A DNA stretch of 64,000 nt from Candidatus Spyradenecus sp. (lineage in GTDB: Bacteria; Verrucomicrobiota; Verrucomicrobiia; Opitutales; UBA953), in assembly GCA_045535075.1 (NCBI GenBank), contig JAZSKX010000017.1:32001-96000 (forward strand). Direction: 5' to 3'. The position numbers are program-made. This document shows, one piece after another, positions 15,001 to 21,000 of this stretch (position 1 is the first letter of the stretch; every line of letters starts with the position of its first letter).

Positions 15001-18000
15001 ATTTAAACTCGTAAGCGACGTTCCCGTAGAATGCGACGCCGTCGTTTTGGTCGCCGTTAATGTCTTCCTTGTATTGGTTGGAGATCGCGAATCCGTATTT
15101 GAAGTCGGAAACTTTTCCGTCCCACCACACACCGCCGTGGCGTCCGGCGAGCGAGCCGTTTGCGAGGTTTGTAAAATAAACCGTTGCGACGGACTGCTCG
15201 ATGCAAAGTTGCGTTTTGGACGAGGAATATTCCTCCATCACAAAGCTCGGTTTTTGATAACCGGCGGTGAGTTTTCCGGCGGCGTTTTTGTAAGCGATAA
15301 TCGCCTTATCGACAAAGATCGTGCTGTTGTCGGCTCCGAGCTTTCCGCCTTTGTTCCCGCTGTCGATTTCAAAACCGACTTCAGCGCTCCACGCTTCGGA
15401 GATTTCCCCCTTTACGGAAATTGCCGCGCGGCGAATCGCGAATCCGGAATTGGCGTTGGCGGAATTGTTTTTACTGTCGTTGTAAAAATACTGCGCCTGC
15501 GCGTAGCCGGAGACTTTTATTTTCGCCGCATCGAGTTTTTTCTTGAGATCGGGAAGCTTGATGACGAGCTCGTCGTCCGCGCCGGCGGCGGGAACGTTTT
15601 TCGCGGGAACGTCTTGGGCTTCGGCGGCAGCAAATCCGCAAATAAGCATCGCCGCCGCAGTTAGTGTTTGTCGTGTCAGTTTTCGGTTCATCATTTTTTG
15701 AATGAATTAAAGTCCCGATAATCTACACGTGCTTTGTTCAGAGCTTATTCGCCTCAGATTAGAAATTTGTTAAAACACAAAAGCAGGCTAAAAATTGTTT
15801 TTGAGGGAACCGATGAGAGCTGAGAGCTTAGAGGTAAATGCGCTTTGCCTACGGCAAAATGAGGTTTTTGAAATTCTTTTTCGGAAATACCTCTCATCTC
15901 TATCATCTTTCTACCGGAAACTCTATTTATGGAGCTTCCCTTAAAGATTAAAGAAAGCGTTCCCGCGAAAACAAATTGCGGGAACGCTTTTTTCGGAATT
16001 GAAACGCCAAGCTTAGTGCTTGGATTTGACGAGCTTTTGAGCGATGGCAAAGCGGGCGACGGCTTCGAGGCGTTCGAGCTCGGCGGGATCGATTTCCTTT
16101 TGGTGGCGCGCCGCTTCGAGCGCGGCTTCGGCGCGTTTCTGTGCATCTTCCACGGCGGAAAGATCGATCGCCTTGACGTCGATGGCGGCTTCGGCGAGCA
16201 CGCTCACGCGGTCGGCGAGCACGCGCGCGTAGCCTTTATCGACGGCGAGCTTGGTCGTTCCCGCGCTTGTTTCCACGTCGATTTCGCCGGGTTCGATTTC
16301 CGCCGTCAGCGGAATGTGCCCGGGAAGAATCCCGAGTTCGCCACTCGTCGTCGGAAGCGTCACGGAATTGACGTTTTCTGCCTGATAAACAATGCCTGTG
16401 GGAGTGATAATTTCAAAACTTAGCATTTTAAAAAGGTAAAACTGATAACTGATAGTGGATAGGTTTCGTATGTTAAAACTGATAACAAATTTATTCTTCC
16501 AGCTTTTTCTTGGTTGTTTTTACGGAGGAAGTAAGAAGCTTAGCCAATTCAACCACGTCCGGATAAATCGCATCATGCTCACGTGCAGACAAATACTCTC
16601 CGGCAAAAAGCAGTGTTAGCCAATATTGCGTTTCGTTTGCCTCTTTCAATGCAATATTGAGTTTGTGCACAAAATCCCGGCGACTTTGTGCATTCCACGC
16701 CTCATGAACATTCGCCCCTATACTGGTTGCGCTACGCAAAAACTGCTTGGACAGAACAAACTCTTTTTTTTCGTCAGTAAGATAACGATAGAGTTTTACC
16801 GCGCGCATTGCGAAAGCCATAGATTTTTCTCTCAACAAACTCATGGTAAAACCTATCAGTTATCAGTTATCAGTTTTCCCTTATCGGCGAAGCTATTGCT
16901 TTGCTGATGCGATCACTTCGTCGATGGAGCCTTTCATGTAGAAGTGCTGTTCTGCGATATCGTCCACTTCGCCCTTGAGAATCGTGTCGAGCGAGCGCAC
17001 GGTGTCGGCAACGGAGCAGTAAGCGCCGTTCATTCCCGTGAATTGCTCCGCGACGTGGAACGGCTGGGAAAGGAACTTCTGGATTTTGCGTGCGCGCGAA
17101 ACCGTAAGTTTGTCCTCGTCGGAAAGCTCGTCCATACCCAAAATCGCGATGATGTCCTGCAAATCTTTGTATTTTTGCAAAACGGCTTGAACGGCACGCG
17201 CGACGCGGAAGTGGTCTTCGCCGACGATTTGCGGCGTGAGCGCCTGCGAAGTCGAAGCGAGCGGATCAACCGCCGGATAAATCGCGAGCTCGGCGATTTT
17301 TCGGTCGAGAACGATGGTCGAGTCCAAGTGCGCGAAGGTGTTCGCGGGAGCGGGGTCGGTCAAGTCGTCTGCGGGAACGTAAACAGCTTGGAACGAGGTG
17401 ATGGAGCCTTTTTTCGTCGAAGTGATGCGTTCCTGCAGGTTGCCCATTTCCGTCGCAAGCGTCGGCTGATAACCGACGGCGGAAGAGGAACGCCCGAGCA
17501 AGGCGGAAACTTCCGAGCCCGCCTGCGAGAAACGGAAAATATTGTCGATAAACAAAAGAACGTCCTGCCCTTTTTCGTCGCGGAAATATTCCGTCATGGC
17601 AAGCGCGGTCAGCGCGACGCGCATACGCGCTCCCGGCGGTTCGTTCATCTGCCCGTAAACGAGCGCGACCTTGGATTTGGAAATATCCTTCGTGTCGATA
17701 ACGCCGGATTCGCACATTTCGCGGTAAAGGTCGTTGCCTTCGCGGGAACGCTCGCCGACGCCCGCAAACACGGAATAACCGCCGTGCGCTTTCGCGATGT
17801 TGTTGATGAGCTCCATGATGAGAACGGTTTTGCCGACGCCCGCGCCGCCGAACGCACCGACCTTCCCGCCTTTGACGAAGGGGCAAATCAGGTCGATGAC
17901 CTTAATTCCCGTTTCAAGCAGTTCCGCGCCCGTGCTTTGCTCGACGAGCGGCGGCGGGTTGCGGTGAATCGGGTATTTTTTCGTGAAATTCACGTCTCCT

Positions 18001-21000
18001 TTGCCGTCCACGGGATCGCCCGTAACGTTGAAAATGCGACCGAGAACGCCTTCTCCGACGGGAGCCTGAATGGGCGCTCCCGTGTCGATAACGTCCATCC
18101 CGCGCACAAGCCCGTCCGTCGTACTCATCGCGACCGCGCGCACAACGCCCGCGCCGAGGTGCTGCTGCACTTCGAGCACGAGGCGCGTCGGAGCACCGTT
18201 GAGGTCGTAATTCACTTCCAACGCGTTGTAAATCGCGGGAATATTTTTTTCGTCAAACTGCGCGTCCACAACCGCGCCGATAATCTGAGTAATCGTTCCT
18301 TTGTTCATAAATTTTAAGAGGTTTTGGTGTTATAAAAAAAGAAGTGTTCCCGCAGATAGATACAAACGTTTCCGGATATTTTTCAAAAGCTTCGCGTTAA
18401 AAACATTCGTGGCGGGTTGTGTTCATTTCTTTAAGCTTTAAGCCCTAAGCACTCAACTTTCTATCCTGCGTTGGAGGCGGCGAGTTCGTTGATTTCGTTG
18501 GTGATGGCGGCTTGGCGCGCCTTGTTGTATTCGAGCGAGAGGGAATCGACGAGGTTTTTCGCGTTGTCCGTCGCGGCTTTCATCGCGACCATGCGCGCGG
18601 ACTGTTCGGACGCTTTCGCCTCCAAAATCGCCTGATACAAGCTCTGCTTGAAAAACAGCGCGGGAAGCCCGTCGAGAATCGTTCCCGCGTCGGGCGCGAA
18701 CGACATTTCGCGGTCGTCTTCGAGCAGCTTAAATTCTTCTTTTTTGCCCTGCGCGGCGAACTGCGCCTGCATGCGTTCTTCCAAGTTCCCGAGCGGCACG
18801 AGCGTCGCCATTGTCGGCACCTGCACAATCGTGTTCTTAAACTGCGAAAGCACAATTTCGATCGTGTCGATCGTTCCCGCGAGGTATTCCTTGATCAAAA
18901 ATTCCCCGATCGGGCGCACTTCGGAAAAGTTCACGCGGTCGCTCACGGAAAAGTCCGCCACGAGGTCGCGTTTCGACCGCGCCACGAACTGCGTCGCTTT
19001 TTTCCCGACGGTAAAAAACTTTGCCGGCGTTCCCGCGGGAACGTTTTTGTTCAAAAAGCGAAACAGATTGGAATTAAGCCCGCCGCACAGTCCTTTGTCG
19101 GTTGCGATGACGACGATCCCGCGCGTTTTCACGGGGCGTTCCTGCATGAGCGGATGCGAAAAATCGCCCGACAAATCGAGCCCGCGCAACGCCGTCGCAA
19201 GAATCCGCGAAAGCAGAACCGCGTAAGGTCGCCCGGAAGTTGCGGCGTCCTGCGCGCGGCGCATTTTCGACGATGCAACCAGCTGCATCGCGCGCGTGAT
19301 TTGCCCGGTGTTCGTCACCGAACGAATACGATTTCGAATTTCTCTCAGACCCTTAGCCATTTTTGAAAAAAGATTAAAGCTTAATGCTTAAAGCTTAAAG
19401 AAAGTGTAAGTTTTAAGAAAAAGCAGTTTAAGATTGAATTGATTGTTTGTTGCGACGAAGCCCGCTAAGCATTCTCGCAATTTCCTGAATGAGAGCCCCT
19501 AAGTCCTCAAAGCGTTCCCGCGAAACGTACCCCAAATCCTCCGCCAGTTGAAGTTGGCAAAAAACTTCCATCAACGAACCGTAAGCGATTTCGATAAAAC
19601 GGATTTGATCTTTCGGGGATTCCTTTGCACTTCCTTCAGCAATGTTTGAAGGGACGGAAATCACGGCTCGCCGCAATTGATCCGCAAGCGAAAAACGCTC
19701 CGCTTGCGGGAACGATTCCAACACGGAGTAGACGCGTTTCACCAGCGCGCGCGACTTCTGCCACACAAGCAACTTTTGAAACGAGAAAAATGTGTTGGGA
19801 CTTTCCATCTTCAAACTCTCTTTAAGCTTTAAGCATTAAGCTCTAAGCTTTCAGCCGGCATAAGCCGCTTTCCACTGCGAGCAAGCGGCTTTGATTTTGC
19901 CTTCGAGCTCGTCGTCGAGTTTCGCTTTAGTGCGGATCTCCGTGAGCGTTTCCTTGGCGGAAGTTTCCAAAAATTCCTGAAGCGCGAGCGAGGCGGCGAG
20001 CGTCTTTTCCCGGGGAATGTCCGCAAAGAAATCGTGCTGCATCGCCCAAATCAACGCGATTTGCGAGGCAACCGGTTTCGGTTCGCCGGGACCTTGTTTG
20101 AAGAGCTCGACGAAGCGGTCGCCCTTGTCGAGAATCATTTTCGTCGCCGCATCAAGATCGCTCCCGAACTGCGCAAACGCCGCCATTTCGCGATACTGCG
20201 CAAGCTCGCCTTTGACCTTCCCCGCGACTTGCTTAAACGCCTTGATCTGCGCAGAAGAACCGACGCGGGAAACCGACAAACCGACGGAAATCGCCGGGCG
20301 CACGCCTTGGTTGAACAAGTCCGTTTGCAGGAAGATTTGCCCGTCCGTAATCGAAATAACGTTGGTCGGAATGTAAGCGGAAACGTCGCCCGCCTGCGTT
20401 TCGATAATCGGGAGCGCGGTGAGCGAGCCTTTTCCCGTAAGGCGTGCGGCGCGTTCGAGCAGGCGGGAATGCAGGTAAAAAACGTCGCCCGGATACGCTT
20501 CGCGCCCGGAAGGACGTTTCAGAATCAAAGAAATCTGGCGATAGGCGGCGGCGTGCTTCGACAAGTCGTCGTAAACGACGAGCGCGTCCATGCCGTTTTC
20601 CATAAACCATTCGCCGATTGCCGCTCCCGCGAAAGGAGCATACATCTGGTTCGCGGCGTTTTCCGACGCTCCCGCGACGACGATCACGCAGTATTCGAGC
20701 GCTCCCGCCTTTTCGAGTGTCGCAATCAGGCGCGCCACGCTGGAATTTTTCTGCCCGACGGCAACGTAAATTGAGTAAACCGGACGGAAATTCGGGTCGC
20801 CCGAAGCCAAGCCTTCGCGGTTGATGCGCGCTTGGTTGATGATGGTGTCGGTCGCGATCGTTGTTTTGCCCGTCGAGCGGTCGCCGATGATGAGTTCGCG
20901 TTGCCCGCGCCCGATCGGAATCATCGCGTCGATCGGCATAATGCCGGTTTGGAGTGCCTGATTGACGGGCTCGCGCGGCATGATGCCGGGAGCGATTTTT

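Follow-up and report, generated by a model that had tools for sequence, protein, structure and literature searches.

PF05635 genes enclosed by inverted heptamer arrays in atp operon spacers of Candidatus Spyradenecus sp.

Introduction

The PF05635 protein family was first known from intervening sequences (IVSs) in ribosomal RNA. In 23S rRNA, IVSs are found at helix 9, 25 or 45 and are cut by RNase III. In the genome studied here, that of the gut bacterium Candidatus Spyradenecus sp., two genes of this family lie between protein-coding genes of the atp operon, which raises the question of what kind of element they belong to and how an essential operon accommodates it. Coordinates below are positions in the window, the 64,000-nt stretch of DNA that was analyzed; G000 is the genome at hand, other G labels are related genomes, and our own gene calls are crude open frames.

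Results and Discussion

Two cassettes in the atp operon

The host genes, the two PF05635 open reading frames (ORFs) and their flanking arrays of 7-nt words are as follows.

16013-16426, minus strand: atpC (Pfam)
16433-16466, minus strand: 3' arm of the atpD|atpC cassette, with 6 nt between its end and the atpC start codon
16491-16844, minus strand: PF05635 (23S rRNA IVS protein family) ORF of 117 aa in the atpD|atpC spacer (Pfam, E 3.1e-28)
16849-16882, minus strand: 5' arm of the atpD|atpC cassette, CTGATAA words, beginning 10 nt past the atpD stop codon
16893-18308, minus strand: atpD (Pfam)
18428-18450, minus strand: unpaired array of AAGCTTA-type words in the atpG|atpD spacer, directly past the atpG stop codon
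18461-19360, minus strand: atpG (Pfam)
19369-19405, minus strand: 3' arm of the atpA|atpG cassette, with 8 nt between its end and the atpG start codon
19428-19808, minus strand: PF05635 ORF of 126 aa from ATG in the atpA|atpG spacer (Pfam, E 1.8e-38)
19815-19851, minus strand: 5' arm at atpA|atpG, a run of AAGCTTA-type words that touches the atpA stop codon (0 nt)
19851-21377, minus strand: atpA (Pfam)

The arms, each holding 3-6 words, form pairs of 34 nt with 88% complementarity (atpD|atpC) and 37 nt with 92% complementarity (atpA|atpG). Together with an ORF-less solo stem between atpE and atpF, they are the three longest inverted repeats of the whole 64-kb window at distances up to 800 nt. 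Arms included, the cassettes measure 450-483 nt. The single array at 18428-18450 has no inverted partner in the atpG|atpD spacer. For the atpA|atpG ORF, a TTG at 19814 is an alternative start (19428-19814, 128 aa); this ORF also matches the bAvd model weakly (PF22296, 40.8 bits against a cut-off of 40), and its PDB relatives 2GSC and 2RLD each contain five chains. No catalytic family was recognized in PF05635 proteins, among which certain polar residues are invariant at an identity of merely ~22%.

The four cassettes of the genome and their predicted folds

G000 has exactly four PF05635 matches, as an earlier survey of the genome had reported, spread over contigs C16, C9 and C8. The third and fourth genes lie at the junction of GatC with an amidase (GatA) and at that of an FtsX/MacB-type (lolC-like) permease with an ABC ATPase. 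All four are flanked by word arrays on both sides, and there are just 52 intergenic arrays in the genome against ~1576 crude genes; the association is therefore specific to the PF05635 gene. The whole-spacer RNA folds have predicted energies of -133.9 (z -4.31), -176.2 (z -6.63), -155.5 (z -2.66) and -139.0 kcal/mol (z -4.81). In all four minimum free energy (MFE) folds the two arms pair with each other, as the survey had described, and 0/100 shuffles folded as well as the real spacer in each case. By ungapped arm scoring, 24 of 32 PF05635 loci in the genus reached a score of 14 and 28 reached 12; random placements in G000 scored in the same way reached 14 in 1/1500 cases and 12 in 19/1500.

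The reading that we prefer, and consider on balance probable, is that these are IVS-type cassettes: a PF05635 gene of ~120 codons between complementary arrays of 7-nt words, which fills the spacer of co-oriented host genes and is looped out in the operon mRNA. Such a cassette would possess neither its own promoter nor its own terminator and would be transcribed within the operon mRNA. The arms would zip into a stem of 34-37 bp with the insert in its loop, and the stop codon of the upstream gene and the start codon of the downstream gene would come to lie ~15-20 nt apart at the stem base, so that the operon could tolerate the insert. Judging by this geometry, a ribosome finishing the upstream gene may open the stem base for the cassette ORF and for the following gene.

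Promoter and terminator scans of the cassettes gave matches at chance level, so that internal signals are neither shown nor excluded. A contig from an RNA library, assembled from mixed strains, blind to strand and RNA ends and possibly derived from DNA, matches 16701-16932 without differences, a stretch covering part of the ORF, the whole 5' arm and part of atpD. The arms keep their complementarity although their words change: across nine genomes, 90.7% of cells in the atpA|atpG arm alignment are paired, and sliding the partner lowers this to 19-63%. In three pairs both sides have changed, and these compensatory changes all come from one lineage. Arm mismatches are of the sense type in 43 cases and of the antisense type in 33; G-U pairs in the sense RNA are not favored, and the pairing could therefore be maintained at the level of DNA instead of RNA.

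Alleles, descent and selection within the genus

We compared the atpD|atpC spacer in 16 genus genomes. The CTGATAA-arm cassette is present in G000, G005, G003, G011 and G006; G010 has a related cassette with CTNTTAA-type arms; G004, G017, G007, G015 and G002 carry a cassette with GTGAATA arms and a different PF05635 protein (the ORFs of G000 and G004 differ at 27.9% of their nonsynonymous sites). The spacer holds a solo stem in G013 and G016, an unrelated ORF of 292 aa in G008 and other DNA in G018. In G001 it is empty. This reproduces the allele series of the survey, except that the empty spacer measures 21 nt from stop to start, not 27. Five of the 19 genus genomes have no PF05635 gene; at least one of them, G016, retains the solo stem.

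The cassette ORFs are under purifying selection: Ka/Ks was 0.04-0.21 in the six ORF pairs with computable Ks, with 0.04 for the atpD|atpC ORF against its G011 allele and 0.08-0.21 for the atpA|atpG ORF. Cassettes and their flanks descend together within the genus, and whole alleles have sometimes been swapped between species. Cassette identity follows flank identity in five genomes (e.g., 91.7% vs. 91.6% and 90.1%); between G007 and G011 the flanks are 89.5-94.9% identical, the ORF 62-66% and its third codon positions 37-50%. Ordinary homologous recombination via the conserved atp flanks would suffice to account for such swaps. In the tree, the alleles of one spacer form mutually closest sister clades, and arm words and ORF clades diverge jointly.

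The survey had read the cassettes as mobile. An active element, in which the PF05635 protein moves or maintains hairpin-ended cassettes and the solo stems are MITE-like non-autonomous derivatives, appears unlikely to us. A role of this kind for the IVS ORF was proposed by Ralph and McClelland, as cited in the available part of PMC4990558. The signs of movement are indirect: the closest PF05635 relatives outside the genus, at 50-57% identity, come from Bacteroidales, and clpP|clpX has no insert in G000 (7 nt) but is occupied in G012 and, independently, in an Acidobacteriota MAG. Further signs are a pair of 94% identical solo stems on either side of one small gene and a ~200-nt ORF-less hairpin made of the words of the gatC|gatA cassette arms, which occurs in at least eight dispersed copies of 87-95% identity with sharp ends, terminal inverted repeats and unrelated flanks (boundaries aligned). 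Against these stand the lack of a recognized catalytic family, the sister relationship of same-locus alleles, the tracking of flanks by most cassettes, and the five genomes without the gene, of which G016 at least keeps a solo stem. No target duplication was seen in an alignment of the hairpin-copy boundaries, made without an empty-site comparison, and no transposase was noted, though no search was aimed at one. In addition, the arm words vary by locus, which argues against a single sequence-specific enzyme. The cassettes of the genus look like old residents, not active jumpers.

Solo stems, single arrays and dispersed hairpins

ORF-less solo stems were confirmed at two sites in the window, and a third was added.

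28779-28889, minus strand: ORF-less solo stem, CACGAAT words, downstream of atpF (z -6.24)
29505-29615, minus strand: ORF-less solo stem, GTGAATA words, atpE|atpF spacer (MFE -50.3, ensemble -51.9 kcal/mol, z -11.65)
31746-31862, minus strand: solo stem, HAD-hydrolase|SpoU-methylase spacer (z -3.11; 3/200 shuffles equally good)

At the third site, G005 and G003 have a PF05635 cassette whose arms match the solo stem. Comparison of G000 with G005 (flanks 99.2% identical) shows the loss of an ORF bounded by two 5'-arm copies in direct orientation, leaving the stem at 31746-31862: cassettes have been lost through recombination between arm copies, with solo stems as the product. In G003 and G004 the loop of the atpE|atpF solo stem is inverted (identity 0.88 to the reverse complement vs. 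0.53 direct), an inversion between close relatives, which indicates that the arms recombine as DNA.

The 52 intergenic period-7/8 arrays of G000 include 25 purine-rich ones past a stop codon and 18 pyrimidine-rich ones ahead of a start codon, the orientation of cassette 5' and 3' arms, respectively. Words of the GTGAATA, CACGAAT and AAGATTA types occur in G000 arrays or solo stems although no G000 cassette bears such arms. A hairpin is present in the atpE|atpF spacer in 18/18 genomes, of a heptamer type in nine, a GC-rich type in eight and another type in one. The inverted repeats of ~7-nt words were confirmed, with arms of 34-37 nt at both atp cassettes, whereas their strictly private character was not: words of the same families are met again in solo stems, in single arrays and in the dispersed hairpin.

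From these observations it could be argued that the arms belong to the host, as intercistronic hairpins and gene-boundary arrays, and that the PF05635 ORF is a passenger landing in hairpin loops. The ubiquitous atpE|atpF hairpin of varying sequence type, the common orientation of the arrays and the solo stems with words of no G000 cassette agree with this, and it would account for the ORF landing in 23S rRNA helix loops. We nevertheless judge it improbable, to the same degree as active mobility, since so small a set of arrays flanks all four PF05635 genes and arms and ORF diverge together. Moreover, at the sole spacer where a solo stem and a cassette share arms, the cassette (G005, G003, G002, G015 and G006) is the older state, on a clustering of its ORFs in the tree that is in part weakly supported.

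The joint divergence of words and ORF clades also suits a third proposal, that the PF05635 protein forms a pentameric ring which recognizes, in RNA or in DNA, the 7-nt words of the arms around its gene; the cassette would then regulate itself, or regulate other genes bearing those words. Relatives crystallize as five chains per entry and arms contain 3-6 words; the invariant polar residues and the single arrays of the same words at other gene boundaries point the same way. Against it, arrays and solo stems of the three word types above persist in G000 without a matching cassette, and the G016 solo stem persists without any PF05635 gene. We give this proposal a slimmer chance than either of the other two.

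RNase III

No RNase III match was found in G000 (99.45% complete), in any of the 19 genus genomes or in five sampled genomes of the family to which the genus belongs; in a Bacteroides thetaiotaomicron control both the RNase III and the PF05635 families were matched. The gene is missing from the genus, as had been noted, and for the looped-out cassette this means that the stems should persist uncut. A link between this loss and the cassettes, which the survey had noted as a correlation in one clade, is not needed. PF05635 was present in 59/121 sampled genomes of the order. RNase III was not matched in 25 of the 121, and these include at least six of the 59; of the other 96, which are RNase III-positive, about 52-53 have PF05635. 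Since this is about half of the RNase III-positive genomes, RNase III loss does not explain the cassettes.

Cassettes in other phyla

Among PF05635 loci of other phyla, 48/75 had arms at a score of at least 14, against 8/400 mismatched controls; the word period was 7 in 34 of the armed loci, 8 in 13 and another value in one. The 5' arm starts a median of 5.5 nt past the upstream stop codon (28/44 within -10 to +30) and the 3' arm ends a median of 12.5 nt ahead of the downstream start (34/40 within -10 to +40). Both neighbors are co-oriented with the ORF at 53/58 scorable loci. Many of the 30 neighbor pairs tested are functional partners, such as clpP|clpX, nuoC|nuoD, gyrB|gyrA, guaB|guaA, leuA|leuB and umuD|umuC. 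None of 80 such loci gave an Escherichia coli 23S match. We concluded that the armed intercistronic layout is general: it surrounds most sampled PF05635 relatives in many bacterial phyla, in agreement with the proposal of the survey that IVS-type elements are general operon-spacer elements. A description of such cassettes as a class was not found in the literature searched.

Comparison with known systems

MITE-like elements and those of the REP, ERIC and Correia types are dispersed intergenic hairpin repeats. The solo stems and the ~200-nt element resemble them as dispersed intergenic hairpins within transcription units; several near-identical non-coding copies are seen for the ~200-nt family only, not for the ORF-bearing cassettes, which differ in carrying a conserved gene and in having arms of tandem words that vary by locus.

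Heptamer direct repeats are also known from intergenic regions of cyanobacteria, where they are called STRR repeats. TAACTGA direct repeats are intergenic in Beggiatoaceae, Cyanobacteria and Bacteroidetes and often lie directly upstream of start codons, according to the available text of PMC4679880. TAACTGA is the CTGATAA word of the atpD|atpC arm in another register. A term search of that text returned one inverted repeat only and no mention of the IVS protein family or a four-helix bundle (PMC4679880). The G000 arrays are likewise tandem 7-nt intergenic units oriented to the adjacent gene; unlike TAACTGA repeats, the arrays here form inverted pairs around one specific gene.

Avd proteins of diversity-generating retroelements belong to the same four-helix-bundle superfamily, and the atpA|atpG ORF just passes the bAvd model. 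The cassettes differ in having neither an adjacent reverse transcriptase nor a template/variable repeat pair; the sole RVT_1 match of the genome is a 941-aa frame on contig C2, away from the cassette contigs.

The closest likeness in build is to the ORF-bearing 23S IVSs of Coxiella and Leptospira, which have a PF05635/S23p ORF in the loop and stem-forming terminal inverted repeats. As the survey had proposed, the construction is the same. Such elements are enclosed by a stem of at least about 20 bp, to which the 34- and 37-nt arms, paired in the MFE folds, correspond. The helix 45 IVS of Coxiella burnetii measures 428-444 nt with a 28-bp stem in the accessible part of PMC4990558, close to the 450-483 nt found here. 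The cassettes are unlike IVSs in lying between protein-coding genes instead of in rRNA, and in a host genus without RNase III; the four complete 23S genes of the genus are all 2797-2803 nt long, which leaves no room for an insert. It is conceivable, though we regard it as doubtful, that PF05635 cassettes and solo stems belong to a single, hitherto undescribed class of selfish intercistronic elements found across phyla; its ring protein would act on heptamer arrays to move or maintain the elements, and the TAACTGA and STRR repeats and the ORF-bearing 23S IVSs would be its footprints or special cases. The state of the ORF also sets the cassettes apart from the Coxiella IVS: the Coxiella ORF is reported, in the part of PMC4990558 available, to be decaying and not synthesized in vivo, whereas the cassette ORFs described here are maintained by purifying selection.

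PF05635 cassettes in the ATP synthase operon and elsewhere in the genome

By Pfam matches, the F-type ATP synthase operon lies on the minus strand of the window, which spans 32001-96000 of contig C16, with its genes in the order atpB, atpE, atpF, a short atpH-like ORF, atpA, atpG, atpD, and atpC. Two of its spacers are filled by cassettes, that is, by a PF05635 ORF between two complementary arms of tandem 7-nt words:

16491-16844, minus strand, PF05635 ("23S rRNA intervening sequence protein") ORF in the atpD/atpC spacer
16433-16466 / 16849-16882, arms of the atpD/atpC cassette, 34 nt, 88% complementary, CTGATAA words
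19428-19808, minus strand, PF05635 ORF in the atpA/atpG spacer
19369-19405 / 19815-19851, arms of the atpA/atpG cassette, 37 nt, 92% complementary, AAGCTTA-type words

PF05635 matches in the whole genome under study (G000) number exactly four. The third gene is located between GatC and the GatA amidase and the fourth between an FtsX/MacB-type permease and an ABC ATPase, each with arms of other words. The predicted folds of all four whole spacers pair the flanks (z = -4.31, -6.63, -2.66, and -4.81), and for each spacer none of 100 shuffles folded as well as the native sequence. One ungapped scoring scheme was used for all comparisons of arms with chance. The arm score reached at least 14 in 24 and at least 12 in 28 of the 32 PF05635 loci of the genus; when this geometry was placed at random in G000, 1 of 1500 placements reached 14 and 19 reached 12. 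Scans of the cassettes for promoters (3 found vs. 2.6 expected) and terminators (10 found vs. 12.6 expected) were at chance level, and the PADLOC defence models gave no match to either PF05635 protein of the window.

Layout of PF05635 loci in other phyla

Further loci were searched with a five-sequence alignment, one genome per species, and the best 80 were taken; these were chosen by likeness to one PF05635 subfamily and so are not a random sample of the family. They come from Bacteroidota, Acidobacteriota, Planctomycetota, Clostridia, Chloroflexota, Elusimicrobiota, Proteobacteria, and others, and none of these best 80 loci matched 23S rRNA. Arms at a score of at least 14 were found in 48 of the 75 loci with enough flank and in 8 of 400 flank pairs that were mismatched as a control. 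Of the 48 armed loci, 34 have a word period of 7, 13 of 8, and one of another length. The median distance from the upstream stop codon to the start of the 5' arm is 5.5 nt, with 28 of 44 between -10 and +30. From the end of the 3' arm to the earliest in-frame start codon of the following gene the median is 12.5 nt, with 34 of 40 between -10 and +40. C is scarce in the upstream arm (G 493, A 411, T 408, C 149), so the polarity of the arms is fixed with respect to the ORF. Both neighbours are co-oriented with the PF05635 ORF in 53 of the 58 loci having two callable neighbours, and 59 of 60 neighbour proteins (30 loci) have Pfam matches. Many neighbour pairs are recognizable functional partners (clpP/clpX, nuoC/nuoD, gyrB/gyrA, E1-alpha/E1-beta, guaB/guaA), and leuA/leuB, umuD/umuC, rmlB/rmlA, and ABC ATPase/permease are further such pairs. 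We concluded that the PF05635 gene is usually found between inverted heptamer arrays and that its place among co-oriented genes is exactly the gap from one stop codon to the next start codon.

Allele history within the genus

PF05635 genes are present in 14 of the 19 sampled genus genomes, with 0 to 8 matches each (E 1e-5 or better). Ka/Ks was 0.04-0.21 in the six ORF pairs with computable Ks, and Ks was saturated in three further pairs. The atpA/atpG cassette is orthologous across nine genomes. In G005, G003, G004, G010, and G006 it has diverged to the same degree as the flanks, as in G010, where identity is 91.7% for the ORF and 91.6% and 90.1% for the flanks. G011 and G007 differ: their flanks keep 89.5-94.9% identity, against only 62-66% in the ORF and 37-50% at third codon positions, and the arms carry a changed word on both sides. 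Over the nine genomes, 90.7% of the arm cells are paired vs. 19-63% with the partner slid, and the three pairs altered on both sides all fall within one lineage, that of G011 and G007. Arms that change together with their ORF bring up the reading of a ring protein that recognizes its own arm words, which we hold to be rather improbable.

The atpD/atpC spacer contains, across the genus, at least four cassette alleles, solo stems (ORF-less hairpins of the same word types), an unrelated ORF, other DNA, or an empty site. The clpP/clpX junction is empty in G000 (7 nt) and filled in G012. The filled and empty states of this junction could suggest an active mobile element with the PF05635 protein as its mobility factor, and we regard this as unlikely. 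Fresh insertion of unrelated cassettes was rejected as the source of the swaps, since alleles of one spacer are sisters in the protein tree (support 85/77 for atpA/atpG and 86/26 for atpD/atpC); the swaps are therefore exchanges of old alleles. The simplest route for such exchanges would be homologous recombination via the conserved atp genes.

Solo stems, ORF loss, and inversion

The spacer between a HAD-hydrolase and a SpoU-methylase gene in G000 contains a stem and no ORF:

31746-31772 / 31836-31862, arms of the ORF-less stem in the HAD-hydrolase/SpoU-methylase spacer (window 31731-31872)

The same site holds a PF05635 cassette in G005 (flanks 99.2% identical to those of G000) and G003 (96.6%), in the order 5' arm, ORF, second copy of the 5' arm, loop, and 3' arm. 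Judged from these alignments, the G000 stem is exactly the remnant that would be expected from recombination between the two copies of the 5' arm. The ORF is ancestral and was lost in G000, because G002, G015, and G006 also carry a cassette there and the ORFs cluster in the tree, partly without strong support. Integration by crossover at an arm copy was also considered as a general rule and rejected: the 5' arm is duplicated behind the ORF in only 2 of 31 genus cassettes, both at this one locus.

The atpE/atpF spacer contains a heptamer-word stem in nine genomes, a GC-rich hairpin in eight, and another hairpin in one. The middle part of the heptamer stem lies in opposite orientations in G000 and G003 (0.88 identity to the reverse complement, 0.53 direct), which shows that the arms have recombined with each other as DNA.

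Word arrays and dispersed hairpins in G000

By crude gene calls, 52 of the 79 arrays of period 7-8 in G000 are intergenic; 25 of these follow a stop codon and are purine-rich, and 18 precede a start codon and are pyrimidine-rich. The polarity matches that of the cassette arms. The GCTGAGA-type words of the gatC/gatA arms also build a MITE-like hairpin of ∼200 nt in at least eight dispersed copies (87-95% identity):

G000 C8:52955-53150 and 7 other sites, copies of the ∼200-nt hairpin

With word arrays and hairpins present apart from any PF05635 gene, the ORF might be a passenger that landed in host hairpins; this, too, seems unlikely to us.

Diverged copies of the ∼200-nt hairpin (∼70% identity) lie just downstream of atpC, at window 15788-15941 and 11081-11177. 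Hairpins that share the motif CGTTCCCG / CGGGAACG and have a T run behind them occur genome-wide (e.g., window 15951-15993 and 13286-13333) and appear to be the usual terminators of G000. Several single heptamer arrays fit exactly between a stop codon and such a terminator-like hairpin. The longest inverted pair in the genome scan, at C5:51893-52408, is an 80-nt repeat (77/80 complementary) with 356 nt between its arms, and could be the sign of a segment that inverts or of a gene start that was duplicated. A 21-nt motif with a short palindrome is clustered in both orientations and with irregular spacing at C8:242589-243538, C1:128785-129173, and C5:50361-51120.

Other inserts and genes in the atp region

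A low-GC stretch of ∼6 kb (42-46% vs. ∼52% for the genome) extends over window 21403-27433, between the atpH-like ORF and atpA. Its five co-oriented ORFs had no Pfam, PHROG, or PADLOC match. Contigs of other strains connect 21403/21415 with 27433, across only ∼20 letters in one RNA-library contig and across 985 other letters in two runs. A 286-aa Bro-N ORF (window 27901-28761) is located between atpF and the atpH-like ORF. It has a match (E 7e-115) to the candidate defence family PDC-S13 and a second one to a type I specificity-subunit model, in the N-terminal part of the model; where this ORF would stand, another strain's contigs in the DNA run X1 show 279 other letters. The atpD/atpC spacer of G008 (locus L020) is filled by an ORF of 292 aa whose N-terminus is lipoprotein-like and whose middle resembles a coiled coil. 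This ORF and the other inserts of the atp operon suggest that the atp spacers of the genus accept several kinds of foreign gene.

In the atpD/atpC spacers of G010, G015, and G002 (L012, L016, and L017), the final ∼20 nt of the atpD CDS are followed directly past the stop codon by their own reverse complement, and a near-perfect hairpin is thus formed from the end of atpD itself, upstream of the cassette arm. The sole OSCP (atpH) match of the genome covers only profile positions 84-172, in a 136-aa ORF at window 27432-27842; this delta subunit is either short or N-terminally diverged. The single reverse-transcriptase domain of the genome (C2:19202-19633) lies in a 941-aa open frame away from any PF05635 gene.

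RNase III, 23S rRNA, and RNA-level observations

No RNase III match was found in G000, in any of the 19 genus genomes, or in the five other sampled family members; the enzyme is present in 96 of the 121 sampled order genomes. PF05635 is present in 59 of the same 121, at least six of them among the 25 without RNase III, and therefore ∼52-53 of the 96 RNase III-positive genomes carry it. The survey's finding had named G033 as a carrier of PF05635, and we found no match in that genome at E 1e-12 or better. The loss of RNase III is real but does not explain the cassettes. All four complete 23S genes of the genus are free of an insert (the G000 23S rRNA is unassembled).

We compared four sequence runs: two metatranscriptomes, one run labelled transcriptomic but probably DNA, and one DNA run. 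RNA ends, strand, and processing are unreadable in them because they are assembled contigs of mixed strains. The sole hint at the RNA level is one RNA-library contig that covers window 16701-16932 with no differences, joining the ORF to atpD through the 5' arm, with DNA carry-over possible. RNA contigs ending at 16903 were ruled out as cleavage products; they come from a strain with another cassette allele. The asymmetry of G-U wobbles in the arms, a test for RNA-level selection, was not significant (43 vs. 33).

Discussion

On balance, the element is probably an IVS-type cassette (IVS, intervening sequence of 23S rRNA) carried along on operon transcripts. Beyond its anatomy, selection, and allele history, we infer every step of how this would work. 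The stem formed by the arms would loop the insert out and hold the stop and start codons of the neighbours adjacent, and this geometry is what would allow such an insert to survive where operon genes are tightly coupled and, at other sites, in rRNA helices.

Genes of the PF05635 "four helix bundle" family are very common, and we know of no role for them. Intervening sequences in 23S rRNA have long been a puzzle, as have the heptamer repeats of bacteria. In the literature searched, PF05635 cassettes with heptamer arms in operon spacers were not found described. The Coxiella IVS and its cleavage by RNase III have been described (PMC4990558), as have TAACTGA repeats, with no link to the PF05635 family in the part of that article consulted (PMC4679880); in the portions consulted of three other articles the family is mentioned in passing (PMC11637426, PMC8700078, PMC10910872). 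The RNase III-free genus provides a natural background for testing whether the stems serve as mRNA architecture (coupling, insulation) as opposed to excision. The cassettes connect PF05635 genes, 23S rRNA intervening sequences, and heptamer repeats, to which the genus adds the dynamics at species level: vertical descent, whole-allele swaps, ORF loss leading to a solo stem, and loop inversion.
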